From Chloroflexota bacterium (GTDB lineage Bacteria; Chloroflexota; Limnocylindria; QHBO01), in assembly GCA_040902225.1 (NCBI GenBank), contig JBBDXT010000007.1, positions 449,112-513,111 of the forward strand: 64,000 bases of DNA, read 5' to 3'. A program made the translations under genes and the position numbers. Positions 13,581-50,116 of this stretch are shown here, one piece after another; positions within the stretch are counted from its first letter, which is position 1; each line of letters opens with the position of its first letter. The notes under the pieces are model-generated. The model was not told the origin of the DNA and searched no databases. It worked only from the letters and a program-made list of their open reading frames with translations.

Positions 13581-14509
13581 ACCCGGTCGGCGTCTCCCGC
13601 TGACTCGCTGGCGACCAGCGCCGGTCTCTCGGGCACGTTTGTGTCGTCCAGGACCGGGATCGGCGTCCGGCGCGGCCTCGGCCTGAACGGTGATGTCTCG
13701 GGCACGACCGGTCCATCGGTCTCGGCCAGTTCGCCGGAGCGGTAAGCCTCCCACACGGCCATCACCGTGTCGCGGTGCGGTCGAATGCGGCAGTGCTCGT
13801 CGCGGTTGCCCATCTCGTCGCAGTAGCCGAGCGGCACGCACTTAGGGGCCAGGAAGGAGCCGAAGAAGGGCGAGACGCGGAAGATCTCGTGGCGGATCTG
13901 CTTGAACAGCTGGCGGATCTCCCACTGGGCCATGGTGCACAGCCGCAGGCCGCTCATGTGGATCAGCTGTCGCAGGTTGACGGTCATGATCAGGTTGGTC
14001 TGCATCGCGTTCGGGAAGATGAAACGGGCGTCCTCGGCTGGCACCTCGGCCTGCAGCAGCTGCCCGTACAGTTCGAGGTTGGAGTCCACCGCGGCCTGGA
14101 ACTGGCCGGCGAGGTCGTCCGGCAGGTCGCCCTTGGCGATCGAGTCCGGGATGGTGTAGTTGTCCCTTGCCTTGAACGACACGTAGCGCTGCGACTGCTG
14201 GTCGAAGGCGGTCCCGGCCCGATGGCGCACCAGCTGATGGGAAAGGGTCCGGGTCACGCCACTGATGGCGAAGGTGAAGTTGACGTGCTCGATGGTCGAG
14301 CCGTGGCCGGATTCCATCACCTTGCGGACGAGCGCCTGCTGCTTCTCGTCGGCGACGCCGCGGCTGACCGCCTTGTCCCAGATCTGGTCGGGCAGCTGCT
14401 CGGAGTAGCAGGTCCGGCAGGCGGTGTAGATGATCGGGAGGTAGTACTCCTCGACGATCTCCTTGGTCGGAAAGATGAGCTTGGCGGACACGTCAGAGGT
14501 GGTCGGCAT
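13577..14509 (-). CDS. thyX: FAD-dependent thymidylate synthase ThyX
   Basis: ThyX signature RHRAGTAFDQQSQRY (RHRX7SXR) and about 310 aa length. Confidence 0.85.
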   Translation of the reverse strand: MPTTSDVSAKLIFPTKEIVEEYYLPIIYTACRTCYSEQLPDQIWDKAVSRGVADEKQQALVRKVMESGHGSTIEHVNFTFAISGVTRTLSHQLVRHRAGTAFDQQSQRYVSFKARDNYTIPDSIAKGDLPDDLAGQFQAAVDSNLELYGQLLQAEVPAEDARFIFPNAMQTNLIMTVNLRQLIHMSGLRLCTMAQWEIRQLFKQIRHEIFRVSPFFGSFLAPKCVPLGYCDEMGNRDEHCRIRPHRDTVMAVWEAYRSGELAETDGPVVPETSPFRPRPRRTPIPVLDDTNVPERPALVASESAGDADRV

Positions 14510-14582
14510 GGGACCGCGAGGATACCACCGTGGGACCGATCAGGGGGCGCTTATCCACAACCTGTAGTGGTGTGCATAAGTT

Positions 14583-14795
14583 CTAGGCCCGTATCTTGTG
14601 GCGCACTCCGACCACGACCAAGATGCCTCCCGCGACAATCAGACCCACCCCGACGACATTGAAGGCAATCGTCCCGATCGTCTCGCAGGCCCGACTGTCG
14701 GACTCGCTGAAGCAGGACTGAGCCTGCGGTGCAACGATCAGGGCAGCGATGCCAACGGCGATCAGAAATGCGCCGAGCCAGAGCTTGGCTGTCAT
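14583..14795 (-). CDS. small two-TM membrane protein (paralog A)
   Basis: The called ORF is 14583..14882, but the likely start is MTAKLW at 14795. TM1, then loop APQAQSCFSESDSRACETIGT, then TM2. Paralogous to the adjacent 14806..15069 ORF. Confidence 0.4.
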   Translation of the reverse strand: MTAKLWLGAFLIAVGIAALIVAPQAQSCFSESDSRACETIGTIAFNVVGVGLIVAGGILVVVGVRHKIRA

Positions 14796-14805
14796 CTCGG
14801 CGAGT

Positions 14806-15069
14806 CTAAGGACTCGTGTTGCGTCGGGATCGTCCGCTGCGCCCGGATTGCCGAGGAGGGCGCTCCTCGGTCGGCGAGCCACGCAGCGCCAGCACGATGG
14901 CCGCAGTGGCGACCAGGGCCAGACCCACGACCTTCAGAATGATCGTGCCGCCTGTCTCGCACGCGGTGCTGTCGAAGTCCATGACGCAGGACTGCGCCTG
15001 CGGAGCAACGAGCAGCACTGCAAGGCCGAGCACGATCAGAAGAATTCCCAGCCAGTGCCACCTGGTCAT
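14806..15069 (-). CDS. small two-TM membrane protein (paralog B)
   Basis: MTRWHWLGILLIVLGLAVLLVAPQAQSCVMDFDSTACETGGTIILKVVGLALV... Shares the APQAQSC...DS.ACET.GTI loop motif with paralog A. The start codon overlaps the GGDEF gene stop (ATGA). Confidence 0.4.
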   Translation of the reverse strand: MTRWHWLGILLIVLGLAVLLVAPQAQSCVMDFDSTACETGGTIILKVVGLALVATAAIVLALRGSPTEERPPRQSGRSGRSRRNTSP

Positions 15070-16514
15070 GCGTTCCCCTCGGCGAATTCGGCGGTAAGCG
15101 TCTCAACGTCTCGCTCGGGTTCGTCAATGCGGGCCAGCCCGTGGAGCCGATCGAATGCGATCCGGTTGCCGCCGGCCGCCCGCGCGGACGCGAGCGCCTC
15201 CTCGGCGGCCGCCAGGAGCTCATCGCCACTGAGCGTCATCCCAGGGCGCATCAGCGCGATCCCGATGGAGAGGCTCACGGTGACCTCGCCCCGCTCGGTC
15301 ATGACCCGGCGCTCGAGGACCCGATCCAGGACCGCCCGCGCGAACATCACGGCGCCGCCTTCGCCGGTGTGCGGCAGGATCGCCAGGAAGGCGTCGCCGC
15401 CGACGCGACCCACCGCATCGGCCTCGCGCATCCGCACCCGCAGGCGAAGTGCGATCCTGCGCAGCATTTCGTCGCCGACCTCCAGCCCGTGCTCGTGGTT
15501 GAGGTCGGTGAACCGATCGATGTCGAGCAGCACCACCGCCACCGGGTGCGCGTAGCGGCGTGCCTCGGCCGCCTCGGTCCGCAATCGGTCGAGCGTCGGC
15601 CAGCGGCTGGGAAGCCCCGTCAGCGGATCGGTGCTGGACGCTCGGTCGATCTCGACCCGCTGCAGCTCGATCAGGTGGCGCGCGGCGACCAGGTCGTCCA
15701 GCGTGGCTCGCAGCTCGCGCGTCAGGCGAGCGAGCTCGTCGTACTCGGGCGGGCTTTCAGAAGCGGCGGGTCGTTCGTGAACGGCCGGAGCGGGCTCAGC
15801 GACCGCGGTCCGGTGCGCGCGGCTGGCCAGCAGCCGCCAGCCGAGCACCAGCGCGGCCAGGGCCATGCCCAAGGGACCAATCAGGCTCTCCGTCCCGGAG
15901 GAGCGGCCAACTGCGATGGCCCCCACGGACGACGCCGCGATGCCGAGCGCGGTGGCGCGGGCTGGGGCGTCGAGGCTGGTCGCAGCCGCGGCCGCCACCA
16001 GCAGTGCTCCGCCGGCGAGGAAGATGGGCGCAATCCGCGCCGGGACCGACCATCCCGCGGCCACCAGCATGCCCGCCAGGCTGGCTTCTACCAGCGCAAT
16101 GGCAATGAGGAGGCCGACGATCCGTCCCCGTCGGGTGGCGATGGCCCGCTGCCGCAGGACCGACCCAGCGACGAAGACAGCCGCCGCGGAGGTCAGGCCG
16201 ATGCCGAGGCCAAGGACTCCGGCAGCATCGAGGGCGACCACGGCAAAGGCGGTCGCGATCATCCCCAGGCCGGCGAGGTCGGCGAGATCGCGGATCCGGC
16301 CGCCTTCCAGCGCCGCATCGACCGCGATCAGCAGGGCGAGGCCGGCGATGACGGCGACGGTTGCGGCGACCGCCGGCGCGACCCACGGGAGCGTCGATCC
16401 CTGCAGGGACGGAAACGCCCGAACCAGGCCGATGGCAGCCAGCGGCAGGAGCACCGCCACGGGGCGGCCTCCGGTGCGCGCGATGATCACGCCGGCTGAT
16501 CGGTTCAAAGGCAT
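15066..16514 (-). CDS. membrane-anchored GGDEF-domain protein (diguanylate cyclase-like, GGDAF variant)
   Basis: Multi-TM N-terminal region then a GGDEF fold (VLLDIDRFTDLNHEHG...RVGGDAFLAILP). The active-site pentapeptide reads GGDAF rather than GG(D/E)EF. Likely start is MPLNRSAG at 16514. The called ORF extends to 16712. Confidence 0.65.
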   Translation of the reverse strand: MPLNRSAGVIIARTGGRPVAVLLPLAAIGLVRAFPSLQGSTLPWVAPAVAATVAVIAGLALLIAVDAALEGGRIRDLADLAGLGMIATAFAVVALDAAGVLGLGIGLTSAAAVFVAGSVLRQRAIATRRGRIVGLLIAIALVEASLAGMLVAAGWSVPARIAPIFLAGGALLVAAAAATSLDAPARATALGIAASSVGAIAVGRSSGTESLIGPLGMALAALVLGWRLLASRAHRTAVAEPAPAVHERPAASESPPEYDELARLTRELRATLDDLVAARHLIELQRVEIDRASSTDPLTGLPSRWPTLDRLRTEAAEARRYAHPVAVVLLDIDRFTDLNHEHGLEVGDEMLRRIALRLRVRMREADAVGRVGGDAFLAILPHTGEGGAVMFARAVLDRVLERRVMTERGEVTVSLSIGIALMRPGMTLSGDELLAAAEEALASARAAGGNRIAFDRLHGLARIDEPERDVETLTAEFAEGNA

Positions 16515-16645
16515 CTCGCGGTGCGGCCGTGCACCGCCGAGTGTCCGAGCCTCGTGTCCCCAGCGGCAATAGTACGAACGGGGCGGCCGTGCTCGCGCTG
16601 CCGTATCCTCGGACCGTGGCCAGCCCGACCTCCAGGCGCACGGTG

Positions 16646-16981
16646 ATGTCCCGCCGTCAGTTCCTGGAACAGACCGATCAGCTGATCGCCGACGGCGACG
16701 CGCTCGTCGCAACCCCGCACTGGGATCTCTTCCGCGCCTGGCTGCTCAACTCCGACGAGCTGCTCGAGCGCGTCTGGGGCCGGATGGACCGATACCACCT
16801 GGCCTGGCTCAACGTCGGTCGAGACTCGGCCCCTTCCGGATCGGACCTGGACGAGCCGGGCACCCTGCGGTTCATCGCCGAGGTGGCCAGCGCCAAGGTC
16901 GCCGTGCTGCGTACCATGCGGGTCGCCGTCGCGACGCGCGGCTGGCGAACCCTGAGCGACGAAGACGAGGAGGATCGGTGA
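16646..16981 (+). CDS. hypothetical protein
   Basis: The ORF is called from 16529. The likely start is MSRRQFLEQ. Its stop overlaps the GTG start of the next gene (GTGA). Confidence 0.3.
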   Translation: MSRRQFLEQTDQLIADGDALVATPHWDLFRAWLLNSDELLERVWGRMDRYHLAWLNVGRDSAPSGSDLDEPGTLRFIAEVASAKVAVLRTMRVAVATRGWRTLSDEDEEDR

Positions 16982-26101: not shown

Positions 26102-27118
26102 TTGACCGGAATAACCAAGATCCTCGTCGCTGACGACGATGCCCCGAGCCGCATGGTGCTGCGCACGATGCTGGAGCGCGCCAAATACCTTGTCGTCGAC
26201 GCCGCCGATGGGCCCGCCGCCCTTGCCCAGGTCGCGCGTCACGGACCGGATCTGGTTCTCCTTGACGTGCAGATGCCGGGCTTGGATGGCTTCGAGGTGA
26301 CGCGTCGCCTCAGGTCGCAGAGCCGCACGGCACTGCTTCCCGTCATCCTTGTCACCGGTCTTGCGGCCCTCGACGACAAGGTGCGTGGCCTCGACGCCGG
26401 TGCCACCGACTTCGTCACCAAACCGTTCCAGCAGGGAGAGCTGCTCGCCCGAGTGCGCGCCAGCCTGCGCACCCAGGCCGCGCTCAGCCGCCTTGAGAGC
26501 GTGCAGGACGTTCTGGTCGCGCTCGCGAATGCGGTCGAGGCCAAGGACCCGACCACCGAGCACCACTGCAGCCGCTTGGCCCAGATGGCGCTGGCCATGG
26601 CCCGCGCCATCAGCCTTCCGGAGGAGGAGGCCGAGGCGATCAGCTACGGCGCGGCGCTGCATGACGTCGGCAAGATCGGCATCGCCGAGCACATCCTGCG
26701 CAAGCCCGCTCCGCTGAGCGAGGACGAATGGGCGGAGATGCGTCGCCATCCGGGCATCGGCGCCGCCATCGTCGAGCCCCTTCAGCTCGGACGCCTGGTG
26801 GCACCCATCATTCGCTACCACCACGAGCATTGGGATGGCAACGGCTATCCCGACGGGCTGCGCGGATTGGCCATTCCGGTCGGTGCGCGCATCGTCGGCG
26901 TGGTCGATGCCTTCGACGCCATGACCCACGACCGCCCCTACCGCTCCGCCATGCGCATAGAGCAGGCCGTCGCGGAGCTGACCACTCAGACCGGTCGCCA
27001 GTTCGACGGCGATCTGGTCACGGTATTCATCGAGCAGTGCCTGACGACGCCGGTCAGCGAGCCCACGGATACGCTTGCCGCCTATACGCAGGGCCTCTAC
27101 CAGTTCGCGTCGGCGTGA
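26102..27118 (+). CDS. response regulator with HD-GYP c-di-GMP phosphodiesterase domain
   Basis: Receiver domain (ILVADDD, LVLLDVQMPGLDG, TKP) followed by an HD-GYP domain (LHDVGKIGI, HHEHWDGNGYPDGL). Confidence 0.85.
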   Translation: MTGITKILVADDDAPSRMVLRTMLERAKYLVVDAADGPAALAQVARHGPDLVLLDVQMPGLDGFEVTRRLRSQSRTALLPVILVTGLAALDDKVRGLDAGATDFVTKPFQQGELLARVRASLRTQAALSRLESVQDVLVALANAVEAKDPTTEHHCSRLAQMALAMARAISLPEEEAEAISYGAALHDVGKIGIAEHILRKPAPLSEDEWAEMRRHPGIGAAIVEPLQLGRLVAPIIRYHHEHWDGNGYPDGLRGLAIPVGARIVGVVDAFDAMTHDRPYRSAMRIEQAVAELTTQTGRQFDGDLVTVFIEQCLTTPVSEPTDTLAAYTQGLYQFASA

Positions 27119-27127
27119 CGCAGGCAC

Positions 27128-27571
27128 ATGCGGCCAATGCCTGACGGCCACCGCGCCGCACTGCCATTACTTACGCGCATGGAAACGGTGGCGAGCGGCA
27201 ACATCCGCCTGACCTGGGACGCTGCGGTCCGCCTCGCCACCATCCGCTTCGAAGGTGAGACCCACGCCACGGGCCGGGACGCAGCGGTAATGGTCGACGC
27301 GATGACCGGCTGGATCGGAACCGAGGGAGAACCGTTCGGGCTCCTGGGCGACGGAGGGAATCTCTCCGGCCTGGATGCCGAGTATCGGTCCGTGTGGGGC
27401 AGCTTCTTCCGGCAGCATCGCGGCGACTCCTCGACCGCCTTCTTCAACATGGGTCCCGTCGTTCGCCTCGCCGCCGAGATGTTCCGGATCGGAACCGGCC
27501 TGCAATTGAAGGCGTTCGCCAACGAGGAAGACGCCCGCGCCTGGCTCCGCCAGCGCGGCATCGGCGCATGA
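27128..27571 (+). CDS. hypothetical protein (between HD-GYP regulator and hybrid kinase)
   Basis: 147-aa ORF with no recognisable motif. Its stop overlaps the ATG of the next gene. Confidence 0.35.
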   Translation: MRPMPDGHRAALPLLTRMETVASGNIRLTWDAAVRLATIRFEGETHATGRDAAVMVDAMTGWIGTEGEPFGLLGDGGNLSGLDAEYRSVWGSFFRQHRGDSSTAFFNMGPVVRLAAEMFRIGTGLQLKAFANEEDARAWLRQRGIGA

Positions 27572-28923
27572 CCGAAGGGCCGACCTTCGACGACGTGTTC
27601 GCCGTCATGTCGGCAGCCTCCGTCGGAGATAGCATCGCCCGCGTGCGCCTCCCCCCGACACCAGAGCTGGACGACCCGGCGACGAGGCTTGGCGTCGCGC
27701 TGAACATCCTGCTCGACGACCTGGCGCTGCGCACCAGCGAGCTGCGCGAGACAGAGGAGCGTCTGCGCCAGGCACAAAAGATGGAGGCCATCGGCCGCCT
27801 CGCCGGCGGCGTGGCCCACGACTTCAACAATATCCTGACCGCCGTGGTCGGCTTCGGCTCGATCCTGGCGGAGTCGCTGCCGGATGGCGAGGACCGGAAG
27901 ATGGCGGGCCAGATCGTGGAGGCAGGCGAACGAGCGGCCGCGCTGACGCACCAGCTGCTCGCGCTTGGGCGGCGCCAGATCCTGGCGCCACGGGTCCTCG
28001 ATCCCGGCGATGTCATCGTGGGTCTCACGCCGCTCATCGGGCAGATCATCGGCGAGCACATCGACTTCATGACCGCGCTGGCCCCAGAGCCGCTGCGGGT
28101 GCGGGCAGATCCGAGCCAACTGGAGCAGGTGCTGGTCAACCTGGTCGCCAACGCCCGCGACGCCATGCCGTCGGGAGGCAAGCTCACCGTAGAGGTCGCC
28201 GAAGTCGAGCTCGACGCCCTGTACGCGGCCACCCATCCGGAGGTGGTGCCCGGCCCGTACGTGATGATCGCGGTCAGCGACACCGGCTCCGGCATGAGCG
28301 ACGAGGTCCGCGAGCACGTCTTCGAGCCGTTCTACACCACCAAAGAAGGGTCCGGCGGCACCGGCCTGGGACTGGCCACGGTGTACGGCGTCGTGAAGCA
28401 GAGCGGCGGCAGCATCGGGGTGTACTCCGAACCCGGCAGCGGGGCCGCCTTCAAGGTCTACCTGCCGCGCGTGTTCGAGACGCCCGAGACAGCGGCGCCG
28501 TCGAGCGTCGAGCCCGAGGTGCCCGCAGGTACCGAGACGATCCTGGTGGCGGAGGACGACGAGGCGGTTCGCACCATCGCGGTACTCGCCCTGTCGCGCG
28601 CCGGGTACCGCGTGCTGGCCGCCGACAGCGGCCCGATGGCGCTGCAGATTTCGGCCGACCATGCGGGCGCCATCGACCTGCTGGTGACCGACGTGGTCAT
28701 GCGCGAGATGAGCGGGCGACAGCTGGCGGAAGAGCTCGGGCGGCTGCGGCCCGAGATGCCCGTCCTGTACATGTCCGGCTACACCGAGAACACGATCGTG
28801 CACCACGGGGTGCTCGATCCCGAAGTCGAGTTCCTGGCGAAGCCCTTCACGCCTACCGCTCTCGTCAGCAAGGTGCGTGAGGTGCTGGGCACTCAGGGGA
28901 CGGGAGAGTTGGCTCGGCGATAG
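27568..28923 (+). CDS. hybrid sensor histidine kinase (HisKA-HATPase-REC), cytoplasmic
   Basis: H-box AHDFNNILTAV, HATPase motifs (GSGMSDEV, GTGLGLATVYG) and a C-terminal receiver (ILVAEDDEAVR, DLLVTDVVM). No TM segment. Confidence 0.8.
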   Translation: MTEGPTFDDVFAVMSAASVGDSIARVRLPPTPELDDPATRLGVALNILLDDLALRTSELRETEERLRQAQKMEAIGRLAGGVAHDFNNILTAVVGFGSILAESLPDGEDRKMAGQIVEAGERAAALTHQLLALGRRQILAPRVLDPGDVIVGLTPLIGQIIGEHIDFMTALAPEPLRVRADPSQLEQVLVNLVANARDAMPSGGKLTVEVAEVELDALYAATHPEVVPGPYVMIAVSDTGSGMSDEVREHVFEPFYTTKEGSGGTGLGLATVYGVVKQSGGSIGVYSEPGSGAAFKVYLPRVFETPETAAPSSVEPEVPAGTETILVAEDDEAVRTIAVLALSRAGYRVLAADSGPMALQISADHAGAIDLLVTDVVMREMSGRQLAEELGRLRPEMPVLYMSGYTENTIVHHGVLDPEVEFLAKPFTPTALVSKVREVLGTQGTGELARR

Positions 28924-46457: not shown

Positions 46458-46481
46458 CGGTCGGCTTGCGCCGTTCAAGGG

Positions 46482-47162
46482 CTAGCTGATGCTGCGTCCC
46501 GCCTTGACGTTCGCGTAGGCGAGCGCCCCGAGGGATGCCAGCAGGATCAGGCTGAAGGCGATGGTCGGCAACGGGCTCGAGCCATCGAGTGACTGCGCGC
46601 TGTCGGGCATGCTCCCTCCGGGAGTGCCGGCGCCGCCCTCGACCAACTGGTCGCTTGACTCTTCGCCTGGATCGTCGCCGGACTCGTCGCCGGACTCGTC
46701 GCCCGACTCGGGGACCGACTCAGACTCGGCCTCCAATTCCTCTTCTGCGCCGTCGCAGCCGTTGTCGAAGATCGCCTGTCCGGCGGCATTCCAGTTCAGG
46801 CTGGGATAGCCGGTCAGGGTGACGCCGTCCGAATAGAACGGCGGGACGATGTCGCCCCAGTACACGCCAGCGGCCTTTGCGCCGGGAGACCACACCGGGC
46901 CCGTGTGCTCGAAGAGGTGGTCGCCCTTGCCGTGGTCGTTGCCGTTGTCGCCGTCGACCGAGGCCTCATCGACCGTGACCTTAACGTACGGATTCGTCTC
47001 CGCATGGGTGCGATGGCAGATGGTGACCTTGTGCAGCGGGTCCGGCTTCGTGGCCTGGACCGGAGTCACGAGGTATGACATCGACAGCGCCATTGCGGCT
47101 GTCGCGGCGAGCACAACGCTCAGCCGTGACATCCGTGCCATGGTGAGAGTGCGAGTGTTCAC
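46482..47162 (-). CDS. secreted cassette protein 1: signal peptide, passenger domain, acidic GDES repeats, conserved C-terminal TM anchor
   Basis: GTG start 5 nt after GGAGAT. Signal MNTRTLTMARMSRLSVVLAATAAMALS...VQA, acidic repeat GDESGDESGDD, and C-terminus SSPLPTIAFSLILLASLGALAYANVKAGRSIS. Confidence 0.6.
   Translation of the reverse strand: MNTRTLTMARMSRLSVVLAATAAMALSMSYLVTPVQATKPDPLHKVTICHRTHAETNPYVKVTVDEASVDGDNGNDHGKGDHLFEHTGPVWSPGAKAAGVYWGDIVPPFYSDGVTLTGYPSLNWNAAGQAIFDNGCDGAEEELEAESESVPESGDESGDESGDDPGEESSDQLVEGGAGTPGGSMPDSAQSLDGSSPLPTIAFSLILLASLGALAYANVKAGRSIS
46669..46720. repeat. 12-bp tandem repeat (gactcgtcgccg x about 3.5) encoding the GDES linker
   Basis: Direct reading of 46669..46720. 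Confidence 0.6.
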
Positions 47163-47277: not shown

Positions 47278-47386
47278 CCGGATGGGCCTCCGGATGGGTC
47301 CAGTTGAGTGCGGTCCGCAGGTGGGGACTCTGGTCGTTGCGCCCCCGCAACGGATTTCGCGGCGCACGAGCCCGAACACAACAGAA

Positions 47387-47416
47387 GACGGGGTAGAGGC
47401 GAACCTCTACCCCGTC
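47387..47416. terminator. 13-bp stem hairpin, copy 2
   Basis: gacggggtagagg cgaa cctctaccccgtc. Confidence 0.45.
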
Positions 47417-47490
47417 CCTGCCAGGGGGGCTGGCTCAATCGGGGCTGTGCGCGCGGCGCATGCCCGGCTCCGTAGTCTATCCGAATGCTA

Positions 47491-47518
47491 GACAGCCCCC
47501 AGAGGACCGGGGGCTGTC
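47491..47518 (-). terminator. 10-bp stem GC hairpin (GACAGCCCCC-N8-GGGGGCTGTC) 35 nt after cassette gene 2 stop
   Basis: Direct reading. A homologous hairpin lies at 48677..48704 and an identical copy at 49193..49220. Confidence 0.45.
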
Positions 47519-47552
47519 TCGTTCAGGTCGACCGGCTGTCGCCGTTTTCTGC

Positions 47553-48347
47553 CTAGATGCGGCTGCGCACCATCTTGACGTTCGCGTAAGCGAGTGCGCC
47601 GAGGGATGCCAGCAGGATCAGGCTGAAGGCGATGGTCGGCAGCGGGCTGGAGCCGGCTCCGAAGAGCGAGCTATCAGCCGTGCTCTCCTCGGCCGAGAAG
47701 GTGAGGGCAGCGACCGACTGCTCGCCCGACTCAGCCTCGGACTCGGGGACCGACTGCTCCTCGGACTCGGGGACGGACTGCTCCTCGGACTCGGGGACGG
47801 ACTCTTCCTCGGACTCGGGGACCGACTGCTCCTCGGACTCCGACTCCTCAAGTTCGATGAGACAGAACGCGATGTGGCTGATGCTGTCCTCCGAAAGCGC
47901 GAGCAGTCCATCGTCGTGGGCAATGCCGGGACCAGCGAATCCAGCCTGCGCGCCGGTGTAGTCATACACGTTCGAGGCGTTGGTGCCCTTGACGATCACA
48001 TAGGCTGCCAGCCCGCCATCGACGATGAACCAGAAGCTATTGCCGTCGACGGTGATCTCGACGTTGGCCGTTGAACCATCGGGGAGCTCGACGTCGTCAT
48101 CCTGGGTGCCGTCCGGGGTCGAGTCGAACTTCAGCTCGGTGGTACCCTCGGGACACGGAACGTTGCCCCCCGAATTCGACCCCCACTCTTCATTATTAGG
48201 CCCCACCGCGATGGGGAGGACCTCCGGGCCGTCGGCCGGGTCATGCTCGGCCAGCACCGGGCTCATCACCCAGAGCATCGACAGCGCGAGCGCCGACAGT
48301 GCGGCGAGAAGGATGGCGGGCCGCGATGCGGCGGTGCGAGTACTCAC
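47553..48347 (-). CDS. secreted cassette protein 2 (copy A): signal peptide, passenger domain, SEEQSVPE repeats, conserved C-terminal TM anchor
   Basis: The called ORF runs to 48395. The homologous start is GTG at 48347 (AAGGAGA-N9-GTG, reading M-S-T-R-T like gene 1). Signal ...LSMLWVMSPVLA, acidic repeats, and C-terminus SSPLPTIAFSLILLASLGALAYANVKMVRSRI. Confidence 0.6.
   Translation of the reverse strand: MSTRTAASRPAILLAALSALALSMLWVMSPVLAEHDPADGPEVLPIAVGPNNEEWGSNSGGNVPCPEGTTELKFDSTPDGTQDDDVELPDGSTANVEITVDGNSFWFIVDGGLAAYVIVKGTNASNVYDYTGAQAGFAGPGIAHDDGLLALSEDSISHIAFCLIELEESESEEQSVPESEEESVPESEEQSVPESEEQSVPESEAESGEQSVAALTFSAEESTADSSLFGAGSSPLPTIAFSLILLASLGALAYANVKMVRSRI
47737..47850. repeat. 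24-bp tandem repeat x about 4.5 (tcggactcggggacSgactgctcc) encoding the SEEQSVPE linker
   Basis: Direct reading. An identical array lies at 49439..49552. Confidence 0.6.
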
Positions 48348-48400
48348 GATACCGGTCTCCTTTACAGCTCCCCTGGTGCTCGGGCGATAGTCCACCCGAG

Positions 48401-48460
48401 ACCCCCCTGGGGTTAGATCTCTGGCACCCTAGGACGGAAGTACTGTTCCTGCCTAGTACC
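48401..48460 (-). promoter_or_regulatory. conserved cassette 5' leader motif, copy L2
   Basis: cccctggggttagatctctggcaccctaggacggaagtactgttcctgcctagtacc. It contains AGATCT, CCTAGG and AGTACT palindromes. Confidence 0.4.
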
Positions 48461-48571
48461 CCCGGAGGCCATGGTGGTGAGGTCCTGTGGGGTTCGGTGG
48501 CGAGCGGATGCCTTAGGTTGGTGCACCGCTGCACCGGAATCTTGCCCACGCCGGCCGACGACACAACAGAA

Positions 48572-48601
48572 GACGGGGTAGAGGCGAACCGCTACCCCGT
48601 C
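48572..48601. terminator. 13-bp stem hairpin, copy 3 (one mismatch)
   Basis: gacggggtagagg cgaa ccgctaccccgtc. Confidence 0.4.
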
Positions 48602-48749
48602 TCTGCCAGGGGGCTGGATCGATCGGAGCCTGGTGCGTGGCCGCTCAGGCTCCCCTGGAGAGTTGTCCGGACACGAGGCAGCCCCCGCCACACCGGGGGC
48701 TGCCTCCGCTAGCTCAGCTGGTGGTTGTTGACCTGTCTTCTGGCACCCA

Positions 48750-48860
48750 CTACATCGGATGCAAGAAGTAACCGAGAGCGAAGGCGATGATCAGCATCGC
48801 GCCAGCGGTGATGAGGATGCGGCGGGAGAAGATCCCGCCCTTGGCTCTACGAGTAATCAC
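48750..48860 (-). CDS. 36-aa mini-cassette ORF (single-TM peptide)
   Basis: GGGAGG-N8-GTG, reading MITRRAKGGIFSRRILITAGAMLIIAFALGYFLHPM. It has the same M-x-T-R start and the same leader (48921..48976) and hairpin context (48677..48704, 48572..48601) as the large cassette genes. Confidence 0.35.
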   Translation of the reverse strand: MITRRAKGGIFSRRILITAGAMLIIAFALGYFLHPM

Positions 48861-48920
48861 GATAACGGCCTCCCTGGACGTTCCTGCTCCCCCGGTGTTC
48901 AACGCGGTGGTCCACGCAGA

Positions 48921-48976
48921 CCCCTGGGGTTAGATCTCCGGCACCCTAGAACGGAAGTACTGGTCGTGACTAGGAC
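48921..48976 (-). promoter_or_regulatory. conserved cassette 5' leader motif, copy L3
   Basis: cccctggggttagatctccggcaccctagaacggaagtactggtcgtgactaggacc. Confidence 0.4.
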
Positions 48977-49077
48977 CTCCGGGTACCCACGTGGTGGGGT
49001 CTGCTTGGGTCCGGTTGAGACCGGGTGCTTTAGGTTGGTGCGTCGTTGCACCGCAATCTTGGCTGCGCCGGGCCGCG

Positions 49078-50116
49078 ACACAACAGAAGACGGGGTAGAG
49101 GCGAACCTCTACCCCGTCCCTGCCAGGGGGGCTGGCTCAATCGGGGCTGTGCGCGCGGCGCATGCCCGGCTCCGTAGTCTATCCGAATGCTAGACAGCCC
49201 CCAGAGGACCGGGGGCTGTCTCGTTCAGGTCGACCGGCTGTCGCCGTTTTCTGCCTAGATGCGGCTGCGCACCATCTTGACGTTCGCGTAAGCGAGTGCG
49301 CCGAGGGATGCCAGCAGGATCAGGCTGAAGGCGATGGTCGGCAGCGGGCTGGAGCCGGCTCCGAAGAGCGAGCTATCAGCCGTGCTCTCCTCGGCCGAGA
49401 AGGTGAGGGCAGCGACCGACTGCTCGCCCGACTCAGCCTCGGACTCGGGGACCGACTGCTCCTCGGACTCGGGGACGGACTGCTCCTCGGACTCGGGGAC
49501 GGACTCTTCCTCGGACTCGGGGACCGACTGCTCCTCGGACTCCGACTCCTCAAGTTCGATGAGACAGAACGCGATGTGGCTGATGCTGTCCTCCGAAAGC
49601 GCGAGCAGTCCATCGTCGTGGGCAATGCCGGGACCAGCGAATCCAGCCTGCGCGCCGGTGTAGTCATACACGTTCGAGGCGTTGGTGCCCTTGACGATCA
49701 CATAGGCTGCCAGCCCGCCATCGACGATGAACCAGAAGCTATTGCCGTCGACGGTGATCTCGACGTTGGCCGTTGAACCATCGGGGAGCTCGACGTCGTC
49801 ATCCTGGGTGCCGTCCGGGGTCGAGTCGAACTTCAGCTCGGTGGTACCCTCGGGACACGGAACGTTGCCCCCCGAATTCGACCCCCACTCTTCATTATTA
49901 GGCCCCACCGCGATGGGGAGGACCTCCGGGCCGTCGGCCGGGTCATGCTCGGCCAGCACCGGGCTCATCACCCAGAGCATCGACAGCGCGAGCGCCGACA
50001 GTGCGGCGAGAAGGATGGCGGGCCGCGATGCGGCGGTGCGAGTACTCACGATACCGGTCTCCTTTACAGCTCCCCTGGTGCTCGGGCGATAGTCCACCCG
50101 AGACCCCCCTGGGGTT
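49078..50116. repeat. 1039-bp direct repeat, copy B
   Basis: See copy A. Identity ends where 48415 (agatct) and 50117 (catcaagg) diverge. Confidence 0.7.
49255..50049 (-). CDS. secreted cassette protein 2 (copy B, identical to copy A)
   Basis: Its translation is identical to 47553..48347. The 5' leader diverges beyond 50116. Confidence 0.6.
   Translation of the reverse strand: MSTRTAASRPAILLAALSALALSMLWVMSPVLAEHDPADGPEVLPIAVGPNNEEWGSNSGGNVPCPEGTTELKFDSTPDGTQDDDVELPDGSTANVEITVDGNSFWFIVDGGLAAYVIVKGTNASNVYDYTGAQAGFAGPGIAHDDGLLALSEDSISHIAFCLIELEESESEEQSVPESEEESVPESEEQSVPESEEQSVPESEAESGEQSVAALTFSAEESTADSSLFGAGSSPLPTIAFSLILLASLGALAYANVKMVRSRI

Follow-up and report, generated by a model that had tools for sequence, protein, structure and literature searches.

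A Chloroflexota membrane protein with a degenerate GGDEF domain and the small two-cysteine hairpin proteins encoded beside it: a candidate c-di-GMP receptor module

Among described proteins, those closest to the GGDEF-domain protein considered here are I-site receptors, which combine a non-catalytic GGDEF signature with an RxxD motif placed exactly five residues upstream of it. These include PelD of P. aeruginosa, PopA of Caulobacter and CdgA of Bdellovibrio, all cited as degenerate-GGDEF receptors in PMC3974145, as well as PssE of Listeria, a degenerate GGDEF protein with RxxD that binds c-di-GMP (PMC4125290). PelD and PssE are anchored in the membrane by two to four transmembrane (TM) segments, joined by a GAF domain in PelD, and are encoded in exopolysaccharide operons.

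For the small proteins of the same locus, the nearest precedents are MgrB-PhoQ and SafA-PhoQ, in which a small membrane protein modulates a membrane sensor. MgrB is a single-pass protein of 47 residues that acts on a histidine kinase encoded apart from it, and is thought to work through TM and periplasmic contacts with the dimeric sensor. Its extracytoplasmic part carries a conserved pair of cysteines (C28 and C39), which are periplasmic, essential and redox-responsive (PMC8404706). Extracytoplasmic cysteines also occur in c-di-GMP signalling. In E. coli PdeC, a CSS loop with two cysteines, enclosed by TM segments, is under redox control (PMC5897775), and in the YfiR-YfiN (TpbB) system, which includes the Cys-containing periplasmic protein YfiR, the envelope redox state sets the activity of a c-di-GMP protein (PMC4992967, PMC3375315). 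A search of the literature for GGDEF proteins that have small membrane proteins as partners found no comparable described system.

The locus described here lies in a 64,000 nt stretch of DNA from a soil bacterium of the Chloroflexota (the window) and comprises three genes, all on the minus strand. The first (15066..16514), present in the list of open reading frames, encodes a 482-residue membrane protein that is matched by Pfam GGDEF (E 2.1e-32) and TIGR00254 (E 4e-33) and whose orthologues are 53-77% identical. Translation of this gene may begin at ATG 16514, TTG 16508 or GTG 16460; the start is uncertain because ATG 16514 is replaced by ACG in some orthologues. The second gene, mini1 (14806..15069), encodes an 87-residue two-TM hairpin protein with a basic C-terminal tail of 25 residues. 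The third, mini2 (14583..14795), encodes a 70-residue paralogue of mini1. NCBI annotates the two as hypothetical proteins, WEB29_11020 and WEB29_11015.

As the initial annotation proposed, the stop codon (TGA) of the GGDEF gene overlaps the start codon (ATG) of mini1 in an ATGA tetranucleotide (15066..15069, minus strand), and a Shine-Dalgarno sequence, GAGGGGA (15074-15080), stands 6 nt upstream of this ATG. A second overlap, suggested between mini1 and mini2, is not borne out by the sequence. The mini2 ATG at 14795 lies 10 nt past the mini1 TAG (14806-14808), across the spacer ACTCGCCGAG (14796..14805). The sole version of mini2 that overlaps mini1 is a 99-residue product initiated at GTG 14882, which was rejected; its 29-codon extension has no counterpart in homologues and shows a non-coding-like composition in its frame (GC3 of 0.66, below GC1 of 0.83). 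No promoters or terminators were found in a scan of positions 14300-16900. Searches against Rfam, both at the gathering threshold and at E ≤ 1, matched no known RNA element, such as a c-di-GMP riboswitch, either in the conserved leader that precedes the GGDEF gene or anywhere else in the window. Elsewhere in the window, an RR-HD-GYP gene (26102-27118) was counted as a component of c-di-GMP turnover in the same organism.

We read this locus as a membrane module that is conserved in Limnocylindria-type Chloroflexota and made up of two genes (three in the present case), in which an I-site receptor or scaffold is joined by a small membrane partner, and put the probability of this reading at about 50%. 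A metagenome scan with the alignment of close mini-protein homologues (A1) yielded 8 loci. The 4-nt overlap between GGDEF and mini genes recurs in most related loci, whereas three of them (L012, L018, L023) have a 9-nt gap instead. The two genes stay juxtaposed, at a gap of at most 9 nt, for mini-proteins that retain as little as 39-42% identity (L012, L026). The linkage is nevertheless frequent rather than obligate. One locus (L025) has a mini gene at the same syntenic place, in the order PIG-L, a 108-aa gene, mini and thyX, without any GGDEF gene, and distant family members in three others (L011, L022, L024) occupy unrelated contexts with no adjoining GGDEF gene; the contigs of some 15 distant clusters were too short to reveal gene context. 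The mini-protein therefore has a function for which this GGDEF protein is not needed.

These exceptions raise the alternative that the two kinds of protein are encoded side by side with no link in function, the mini-protein being a stand-alone hairpin (related to stress, redox or metals, for example) that in this clade happens to share the operon slot flanked by the GGDEF gene and thyX. What stands between mini and thyX is indeed variable, being VIT1, VIT1 fragments, a second mini gene or nothing, within a locus that is otherwise stably syntenic between PIG-L and thyX. Moreover, the loci with a linked GGDEF gene all belong to a single, fairly narrow clade, and adjacency is weak, not independent, evidence because the flanking PIG-L and thyX genes are equally syntenic there. 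Set against this are the ATGA overlap with its internal Shine-Dalgarno sequence in most loci, the persistence of close adjacency in the divergent members, the fact that both products are integral membrane proteins, and the GGDEF protein's lack of any extracytoplasmic domain, a gap that an accessory sensor could fill. We consider unrelated functions unlikely, although this alternative has to be taken seriously. That the mini-proteins are physical or functional partners of the GGDEF protein is a tentative proposal, which we hold at somewhat less than even odds and which draws on translational coupling and the shared location in the membrane.

Both mini-proteins consist of a short basic N-terminus, a TM segment, an acidic loop with two cysteines, a second TM segment and a basic tail, an arrangement that obeys the positive-inside rule. 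This sequence-derived topology agrees with the TM-loop-TM hairpin that had been noted for both. The outward loop comprises approximately 16 residues, with acidic residues flanking the C-x8-C pair. In mini1 it reads A22-PQAQSC28-VMDFDSTA-C37-ETGGT42 (14944..15006, minus strand), and in mini2, by alignment with its paralogue and the family, APQAQSC-FSESDSRA-CETIGT (14670..14732, minus strand). A conserved two-Cys loop had thus been recognized correctly, whereas its spacing had been given as APQAQSC(x8)ACET; the actual motif is APQAQSC-x7-ACET, equivalent to C-x8-C. P23, C28 and C37 are invariant throughout the family. In the first TM segment L7, G8, L11, I12, G15 and L19 are invariant among close homologues (alignment A1), and only G15 is nearly so across the whole family (alignment A4). 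An AlphaFold2 (AF2) model of mini1 computed with a multiple sequence alignment is a generic helix-loop-helix hairpin with a pLDDT of 66, and is uninformative.

A different anatomy would result if the first hydrophobic segment were a signal peptide cleaved at A-Q-S|C, leaving a mature single-pass peptide with a 14-residue N-terminus that is looped by a disulfide or lipidated. Such processing would change the shape of the protein and not necessarily its role. The n-h-c layout fits a leader: MTRWHW is followed by a 16-residue hydrophobic core, and the invariant Cys is preceded by Pro (-5), Ala (-3) and Ser (-1). A lipobox has the form [LVI][ASTVI][GAS]C, and small residues are expected at -1 and -3; in the window proteins A-Q-S|C suits signal peptidase I. 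Several members, however, carry Leu, Trp or Phe at -1 (AQLC in P0023 and P0025, AQWC in P0039, TSFC in P0051), residues that neither signal peptidase I nor signal peptidase II would accept, and Gln at -4 breaks the PROSITE lipobox rule. The conservation of the first TM segment also exceeds that usual for a disposable leader, and we regard cleavage as improbable.

The N-terminal half of the GGDEF protein is an integral-membrane domain (residues 18-231; 15822..16463, minus strand) for which a Kyte-Doolittle scan and a single-sequence AF2 model, the latter of low confidence, predict approximately eight TM helices connected by loops that are all short. Alignment of orthologues reveals invariant motifs in a cytoplasmic loop and in TM7 (LE.GR.RD, RRGR and RATA..(I/V).A.S). 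Residues 1-238 match no Pfam or NCBIfam family at E ≤ 0.1, and HMMs for the MASE1-5, 5TMR-LYT, 7TMR-DISM, MHYT and CSS sensor modules gave no match in the N-terminal TM region. The membrane domain leads into a coiled-coil linker, or signalling helix (residues 256-292, TRELRATLDDLVAAR...; 15639..15749, minus strand), which is nearly invariant in orthologues and is predicted at low confidence by AF2 as one long helix. The GGDEF domain (residues 294-451; 15162..15635, minus strand) aligns with positions 2-161 of the 161 in the PF00990 profile. It scores 112.6 bits for PF00990 (cut-off 23.8) and 114.4 bits for TIGR00254 (cut-off 37.4), and 49 PDB GGDEF chains match it at E < 1e-5. The signalling helix and GGDEF domain together show dN/dS values of 0.10-0.24 against orthologues, indicating strong purifying selection. 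The single-sequence AF2 model of the full protein (pLDDT 43) is uninformative.

The active-site motif is degenerate. Direct reading of the sequence (R-V-G-G-D-A-F) and alignment to the GGEEF or GGDEF of solved diguanylate cyclases (DGCs) both place G372-G-D-A-F376 (15387..15401, minus strand) where GG[DE]EF is canonical, in agreement with the initial annotation. Orthologues carry GADAF, GGDAF, GGDSF or GADSF; position 2 is Ala in most, and position 4 is Ala or Ser in all those recovered and never Glu. The A-site has lost another two or three residues as well. The phosphate and transition-state residues of DGCs (K332, K442 and R446 in PleD numbering) comprise one Lys in D-x-D-x-F-K and a Lys and an Arg in A-K-x-x-G-R-N: in alignments that include DGCs from the PDB, the first is Thr in the window protein and Ala in orthologues, while the second motif reads A[R/K/Q]AAGGN, with Gly invariantly at the Arg position and a variable Lys position (R, K or Q). 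Judged by these alignments, the degeneracy is ancestral to the orthologue group. Replacing GGDEF by GGDAF is the standard way to engineer a cyclase-dead mutant, as in DcpA E308A (PMC4488946) and RpfR E319A (PMC7474642), and the same Glu-to-Ala substitution at the fourth position converts AGDEF to AGDAF in the A-site mutant of VCA0965 (PMC3974145). Because position 4 is Ala or Ser in every orthologue and GGDAF is a standard dead allele, the loss of cyclase activity suggested earlier is well supported, and the window protein very probably lacks DGC activity.

It could still be argued that compensating changes preserve a nucleotide cyclase, making c-di-GMP or another product, with the mini-proteins as its regulators or effectors. 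Some non-canonical motifs are active, including AGDEF in VCA0965 and SGDEF in ECA3270 (PMC3974145), and the window protein keeps the metal-binding Asp of DxD (DID/DLD), the third-position Asp and the guanine-contacting Asn (L-N-H) and Asp (G-D). These residues are necessary and not sufficient, however, and the active exceptions differ from the canonical motif at position 1 rather than at position 4, where replacement of Glu by Ala is a routine inactivating mutation. The losses in the 'FK' and 'GRN' motifs and the frequent Ala at position 2 point the same way. PADLOC defence-system models gave no match to the GGDEF protein, mini1 or mini2, which argues against a defence cyclase, and a CBASS- or Pycsar-like system of cyclase and TM effector was rejected on this ground and because the locus is stably syntenic rather than part of a variable island. 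An active enzyme is therefore highly improbable.

The GGDEF domain has kept an I-site motif. R363-E-A-D366 (15417..15428, minus strand) lies exactly five residues upstream of the signature, aligns with the REYD of 7e6g, and recurs as READ or RAAD at the same position in every orthologue. Nothing else points as strongly to a role as receptor as this retained RxxD, which the initial annotation had overlooked. The pattern is less clear for the secondary I-site arginine on the following helix, which we presume to be the equivalent of PleD R390 and PelD R402. By offset its counterpart is A394; the neighbouring R393 is one register off and varies between R, Q and T across the group, two orthologues having Q or T, and R398 and R402 are invariant. 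Binding of c-di-GMP at the I-site of this protein is thus a reasonable prediction, to which we assign a chance slightly short of even. The earlier suggestion that such a protein would form an unusual c-di-GMP module was overstated as regards the GGDEF half, given that about one GGDEF domain in four is degenerate (PMC3974145) and that PelD, PopA and PssE are well-known I-site receptors; on present evidence, this half is a receptor-type domain of the common degenerate kind. The window protein resembles PelD and PssE in its membrane anchoring and differs from them in having approximately eight TM helices and a signalling helix, no exopolysaccharide genes nearby and a coupled hairpin neighbour, and in that its c-di-GMP binding is a prediction.

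The mini-proteins form a rare, previously undescribed family. The second small ORF is, as had been proposed, a paralogue of the first (53% identity over 60 residues, E 3e-20), and a search for relatives, suggested as a check on the initial annotation, recovered 25 close homologues together with, at 50% identity, 29 clusters among 1.84 billion representatives, with pairwise dN/dS of 0.23-0.42 for mini1 and 0.58 for mini2, so that both conservation and purifying selection are evident and the refuting condition set in the initial annotation, a lack of conservation, does not hold. Although high-GC DNA contains many long chance ORFs and neither mini-protein matched a Pfam, NCBIfam or PADLOC family above cut-off, the notion that these ORFs are spurious can be set aside in view of the paralogy, the family conservation, the dN/dS values, the excess of GC3 over GC2 in frame, the Shine-Dalgarno sequence and ATGA overlap, and the independent calling of mini genes by the NCBI, JGI and ENA pipelines. 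The nearest described family is DUF3185, small bacterial two-TM proteins of unknown function that are similar in size and hairpin layout. mini2 matches it at 17.6 bits over 18 residues of its second TM segment (E 0.004, below the gathering score of 25.3 bits), mini1 does not match, and 4 of 26 family members give weak sub-threshold matches (best E 7e-5); every match covers no more than a hydrophobic helix, and the AP.A..C-x8-C loop lies outside it. Neither Pfam MgrB (at E ≤ 0.1) nor the Pfam CSS-motif matched the mini-proteins, and the idea that the hairpin arose from one of the GGDEF protein's own TM pairs was rejected (hhalign probability 1.3%).

The presence of two paralogues, which had been taken as a feature of the module, proved to be lineage-specific. 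The tandem pair is found only in the window genome and in one relative (L021), with the same 10-nt spacer in both, and the single orthologue of mini2 (P0059, 64% identical) is in this tandem arrangement. mini1 and mini2 share no DNA seeds of 8 nt or more; the duplication is therefore old rather than recent. From its higher dN/dS, mini2 evolves faster and could be drifting. A 59-aa ORF behind the mini gene in two other loci (L001, L003) was rejected as a second paralogue, since it is only 26% identical, has no Cys loop and resembles an N-terminal fragment of VIT1. Four family members (P0049, P0054, P0047 and P0055) are single polypeptides that each contain two Cys-pair hairpins, and these fused relatives lend partial support to the idea that hairpins pair.

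In the module that we favour, the dead A-site, the retained RxxD and the purifying selection together make the GGDEF protein most likely a c-di-GMP sensor or scaffold, and not a cyclase, of the dimer-type signalling class. Bound at the I-site, c-di-GMP would be relayed through the signalling helix to the membrane domain, or information would pass in the reverse direction. The translationally coupled mini1 most likely forms a hairpin dimer beside the TM domain of the receptor, and the tandem duplication probably turns this homodimer into a heterodimer in the window genome and its relative. MgrB-PhoQ, YfiR-YfiN and PdeC with its cis CSS loop suggest, as analogues, that mini1 would most likely be an accessory subunit for input or output, the state of its loop (disulfide or thiol, or a bound cation) being coupled to the receptor. 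The likeness to each model is partial. MgrB shares a small size and an extracytoplasmic part with two conserved cysteines, whereas the mini-proteins are two-TM hairpins, and mini1 is coupled to a GGDEF gene. PdeC likewise presents a Cys pair flanked by two TM segments; however, the CSS loop of PdeC and PdeB forms a large, folded domain carried in cis by an active EAL enzyme, while here a loop of some 16 residues belongs to a separate mini-protein beside an inactive GGDEF. YfiR is soluble and controls an active cyclase, unlike these membrane hairpins.

A bolder version of this proposal, which we think quite unlikely in its entirety, is that the AP.A..C-x8-CET hairpins are small membrane co-receptors of a new class. 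Their homo- or heterodimers would form four-helix bundles and dock on the loop-less eight-TM domain of the dead GGDEF protein. A loop of Cys, Asp and Glu residues that responds to redox state or metals would then be the sole sensing element of this protein outside the cytoplasm, so that the state of the envelope would be integrated, in one complex, with cytoplasmic c-di-GMP read at the I-site. Were this so, CSS-domain redox control would have a split counterpart, acting in trans, in a monoderm phylum.

We know of almost no experimental work on c-di-GMP in Chloroflexota, a major phylum of soil and freshwater, and to our knowledge small membrane proteins that tune sensors, such as MgrB and SafA, have been described almost only in enterobacteria and for histidine kinases. 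If our reading of the module is correct, the orthologue group would be a natural, clade-wide case in Chloroflexota of a GGDEF enzyme turned receptor. A dedicated, translationally coupled small protein for a c-di-GMP receptor would widen the concept of sensor tuning, and the mini-protein family, with approximately 29 clusters worldwide and no Pfam or NCBIfam entry, would gain its first functional hypothesis.

The GGDEF gene lies on the minus strand at 15066-16514, where an ATG start gives a protein of 482 aa within an open frame that extends to 16712. Its N-terminal 230 residues form approximately eight TM helices with very short connecting loops and include no extracytoplasmic domain; searches of Pfam and NCBIfam found no match to MASE, LYT, MHYT or CSS modules in this protein. 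Invariant LE.GR.RD and RRGR motifs are located in cytoplasmic loops and RATA..(I/V).A.S in TM7, and a nearly invariant helix of 37 residues joins the membrane domain to a complete C-terminal GGDEF domain (Pfam, E 2.1e-32), for which NCBIfam reports only TIGR00254, a generic domain model, besides matches below threshold to named cyclases. By analogy, this layout of TM domain, linker helix and GGDEF domain is that of a classic dimeric transmembrane signalling protein. Because the ATG is replaced by ACG in three contigs (L001, L002 and L004), the true start may be a TTG two codons downstream or a GTG 18 codons downstream. The 130-nt leader in the divergent promoter region (about 16515-16650, alignment A5) contains the invariant blocks CGAGGATACG and CGTTCGTACTATTGCCGC, with a hairpin or palindrome, GGTGCACGGCCGCACC, directly before the start codon; Rfam gave no match for this conserved leader.

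As initially annotated, the GGDEF stop codon, TGA, overlaps the start of an 87-aa ORF, mini1 (14806-15069, minus strand, stop TAG), in the sequence ATGA. A Shine-Dalgarno sequence, GAGGGGA, is found 6 nt upstream of the mini1 ATG, and translation of mini1 is coupled to that of the GGDEF gene. The overlap also proposed between mini1 and the second small ORF, the 70-aa mini2 (14583-14795, minus strand), does not hold; with the homology-supported ATG at 14795, mini2 begins ten nucleotides past the mini1 TAG. A GTG-started mini2 of 99 aa that would overlap mini1 was rejected, as its 29 added codons are not coding-like in frame (GC3 0.66, below GC1 0.83).

Contigs carrying mini homologues (L numbers) were fetched and their upstream GGDEF genes compared. 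The syntenic order is GGDEF, mini, a variable slot, thyX and a luciferase-like gene, with a PIG-L deacetylase gene and a gene for 108-150 aa transcribed divergently from the GGDEF side. Except in L025, every locus of this syntenic clade with upstream DNA available has a GGDEF gene ahead of its mini gene. Most loci have the 4-nt overlap with an internal Shine-Dalgarno sequence (L012, L018 and L023 instead have a gap of 9 nt), and adjacency persists at mini identities down to 42% (L012) and 39% (L026). This conserved overlap argues against the GGDEF protein and the minis being unrelated neighbours, a reading that we consider unlikely and that is favoured by L025 and by distant loci with minis in other contexts. 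At L025 (4300-5300) the PIG-L gene, the 108-aa gene, mini and thyX are syntenic without a GGDEF gene, and the mini gene is intact with all family-invariant residues. Family members occur in unrelated contexts in L011, L022 and L024; in L011 (6001-6501) the hairpin is N-terminal in a 166-aa protein within an overlapping four-gene set, which adjoins a protein with an Mrr_cat-like nuclease domain. The link is not obligate and, since all GGDEF-linked loci come from one clade with equally syntenic neighbours, conserved adjacency by itself says little. Minis as partners of the GGDEF protein are plausible but unproven, and we hold a real partnership only tentatively, at somewhat less than even odds.

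The slot between mini and thyX is empty or holds either VIT1 (whole or in fragments) or a second mini, the last only in the window and L021 among the fetched loci. Because L021 reproduces the window arrangement exactly (GGDEF C-terminus, ATGA, 87-aa mini1, the same 10-nt spacer, 70-aa mini2, thyX), the tandem minis stem from a genuine duplication that is inherited and lineage-specific. The duplication is old, as mini1 and mini2 share no DNA seeds of at least 8 nt and dS between the paralogues is approximately 1.0. In L021, the loop DNA of the two minis (150-260 versus 425-535) is almost identical and the rest has diverged; both loops encode APQAQSCVTDFDATVCE, which suggests gene conversion or very strong loop constraint. 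VIT1, of an Fe/Mn transporter family, is located in the slot in L001 (2134-2734), L003, L004, L012 (3505-3905) and L023 (608-1186). Some contigs have it intact (192 aa) and others split or truncated; the window lacks it, and the gene appears to be decaying in this clade.

The two minis are paralogues, as first described (53% identity over 60 residues, E 3e-20). Judged by hydropathy and the placement of charges, each opens with a short basic N-terminus, passes through TM1, an acidic loop and TM2, and ends in a basic tail; the positive-inside rule puts the loop outside and both ends in the cytoplasm. The loop of approximately 16 residues reads A-P-Q-A-Q-S-C-x8-C-E-T-x-G-T; its two cysteines stand as noted in the initial annotation, and their spacing is corrected to C-x8-C. 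An AF2 model of mini1 with the family alignment is a plain helix-loop-helix hairpin (pLDDT 66, loop of low confidence). The n-h-c layout of TM1 would also match a signal peptide cleaved at A-Q-S/C to leave a single-pass mature peptide, which we judge improbable given the Leu, Trp or Phe at position -1 in several homologues. The minis are conserved 2-TM Cys-loop hairpins. Distant members include fused double hairpins with four TM helices and two Cys pairs; P0049 and P0054 each carry two Cys-pair hairpins in succession on one polypeptide, and P0047 and P0055 add a second, different one. By analogy, these fusions are evidence that hairpins may act in pairs, in parallel with the tandem minis here.

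The signature of the GGDEF domain, RVGGDAFL (nt 15387-15401, minus strand), was read from the sequence, and pairwise HMM alignments place GGDAF opposite the GGEEF/GGDEF of solved, active cyclases, which bears out the original assignment. The domain has the GGDEF fold, and its catalytic A-site is without residues required in every cyclase tested. Glu at position 4 is absent from every locus-linked homologue compared: most loci carry GADAF, the window and L010 GGDAF, L012 and L023 GGDSF, and L026 GADSF. Across the window protein and its orthologues, D-x-D-x-F-K has Thr or Ala in place of its Lys, and the C-terminal A-K-x-x-G-R-N always has Gly in place of its Arg, with R, K or Q at the Lys position. 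The suspected loss of cyclase activity is thus well supported, and from the sequence we put the probability that the protein lacks this activity at roughly 0.85-0.9. That it is still an active cyclase is very improbable, as several A-site positions are gone rather than one. The DxD aspartate, the third-position Asp, and an Asn and Asp are kept; the latter two we take, from the PleD and WspR structures, to be guanine contacts in PleD-type enzymes. Despite the A-site losses, the signalling helix and GGDEF domain are under strong purifying selection (dN/dS 0.10-0.24 over 198 codons), and every sequence compared has an RxxD motif (READ or RAAD) upstream of the signature, at a distance of exactly five residues. 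This motif and the overall domain sequence are under selection, and the degeneracy is ancestral and selected.

The GGDEF to GGDAF change is an allele routinely built to abolish cyclase activity, as in DcpA E308A (PMC4488946) and RpfR E319A (PMC7474642), and AGDEF was changed to AGDAF as the corresponding A-site mutant of VCA0965 (PMC3974145). In 'degenerate' cyclases that are nevertheless active in nature, position 1 varies and position 4 does not (PMC3974145). Degenerate domains make up about a quarter of all GGDEF domains (PMC3974145), so that the description of the module as unusual was overstated for its GGDEF part. Among those with an intact RxxD, PelD, PopA, CdgA and PssE are c-di-GMP receptors, and PssE binds two c-di-GMP per monomer (PMC3974145, PMC4125290). 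Judged by sequence criteria, the GGDEF half would belong to this degenerate, I-site-bearing receptor class, and by such criteria it does not qualify as an active cyclase. The secondary arginine of the I-site has only an uncertain counterpart in it. Binding of c-di-GMP at its putative I-site is slightly less than an even proposition.

A word-indexed search of 5.8 billion proteins yielded 25 close homologues of mini1, which is WEB29_11020 in NCBI. These homologues have 68-76 aa, show 61-80% identity and stem without exception from metagenomes or Chloroflexota MAGs; the genome sources of matches are Candidatus Limnocylindria and unclassified Chloroflexota MAGs. L7, G8, L11, I12, G15, V21-A-P23, A25-Q26, C28, C37, T42 and G49 are invariant in 26 sequences. 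The family is rare: when 1.84 billion cluster representatives were searched with a profile, only 29 clusters reached E <= 1e-3. Even in the diverged family (mean column identity 20%), P23, C28 and C37 are invariant and the consensus is C-E-T-x-G-T-x-x-L-N, from which single members deviate. By the Nei-Gojobori method, mini1 orthologue pairs have a dN/dS of 0.23-0.42; the value is 0.58 for mini2 and 0.33 for mini1 versus mini2. The mini ORFs are genuine genes. No family in Pfam, NCBIfam or PADLOC covers them, the best Pfam match being a sub-threshold one to DUF3185 limited to a hydrophobic helix, and they stand outside any described family. A defence-type cyclase with a TM effector has very low probability given the lack of PADLOC matches and the stable housekeeping synteny of the locus, and the idea that the mini ORFs are spurious is refuted by their conservation. 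The initial observation was essentially right.

Elsewhere in the window, the perfect DnaA-box consensus TTATCCACA occurs once versus 0.10 expected, at 14551-14559 (the minus strand reads TGTGGATAA), approximately 45 nt upstream of the thyX start (14509). Of the 27 fetched loci, 22 have this 9-mer just upstream of thyX, in one orientation or the other (inverted in L012, L023 and L025), and it may be a conserved regulatory site coupling thymidylate synthesis to DnaA or another regulator. A near-identical (99-100%) tandem duplication of approximately 1.7 kb (about 47367-50100) contains two identical 280-aa ORFs (47553-48395 and 49255-50097, minus strand) for which Pfam gave no family. Each has an internal array of 24-nt (8-aa) repeats; near 46462-46733 there is a third copy, which has diverged further.

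Since the window also holds a gene (26102-27118, plus strand; Pfam HD_5 6e-35) for a response regulator with an HD-GYP domain, its HD and GYP motifs both intact and its product likely a c-di-GMP phosphodiesterase, the organism probably turns over c-di-GMP; a hybrid histidine kinase follows at 27394-28923 (plus strand). A literature search turned up no earlier description of a small hairpin protein whose translation is coupled to that of a GGDEF receptor. The proposed coupling has analogues in MgrB-PhoQ, where MgrB has two essential periplasmic Cys (PMC8404706), in YfiR-YfiN, and in the cis CSS loop of PdeC (PMC5897775). In the mechanism that we propose, the GGDEF protein would make no c-di-GMP and would instead bind it at the predicted I-site, serving as a receptor or scaffold in the membrane. 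Dimers of the hairpin protein or proteins would form beside the loop-less TM domain of the GGDEF protein, and their outward Cys/Asp/Glu loop may couple a redox or ligand state to the receptor.
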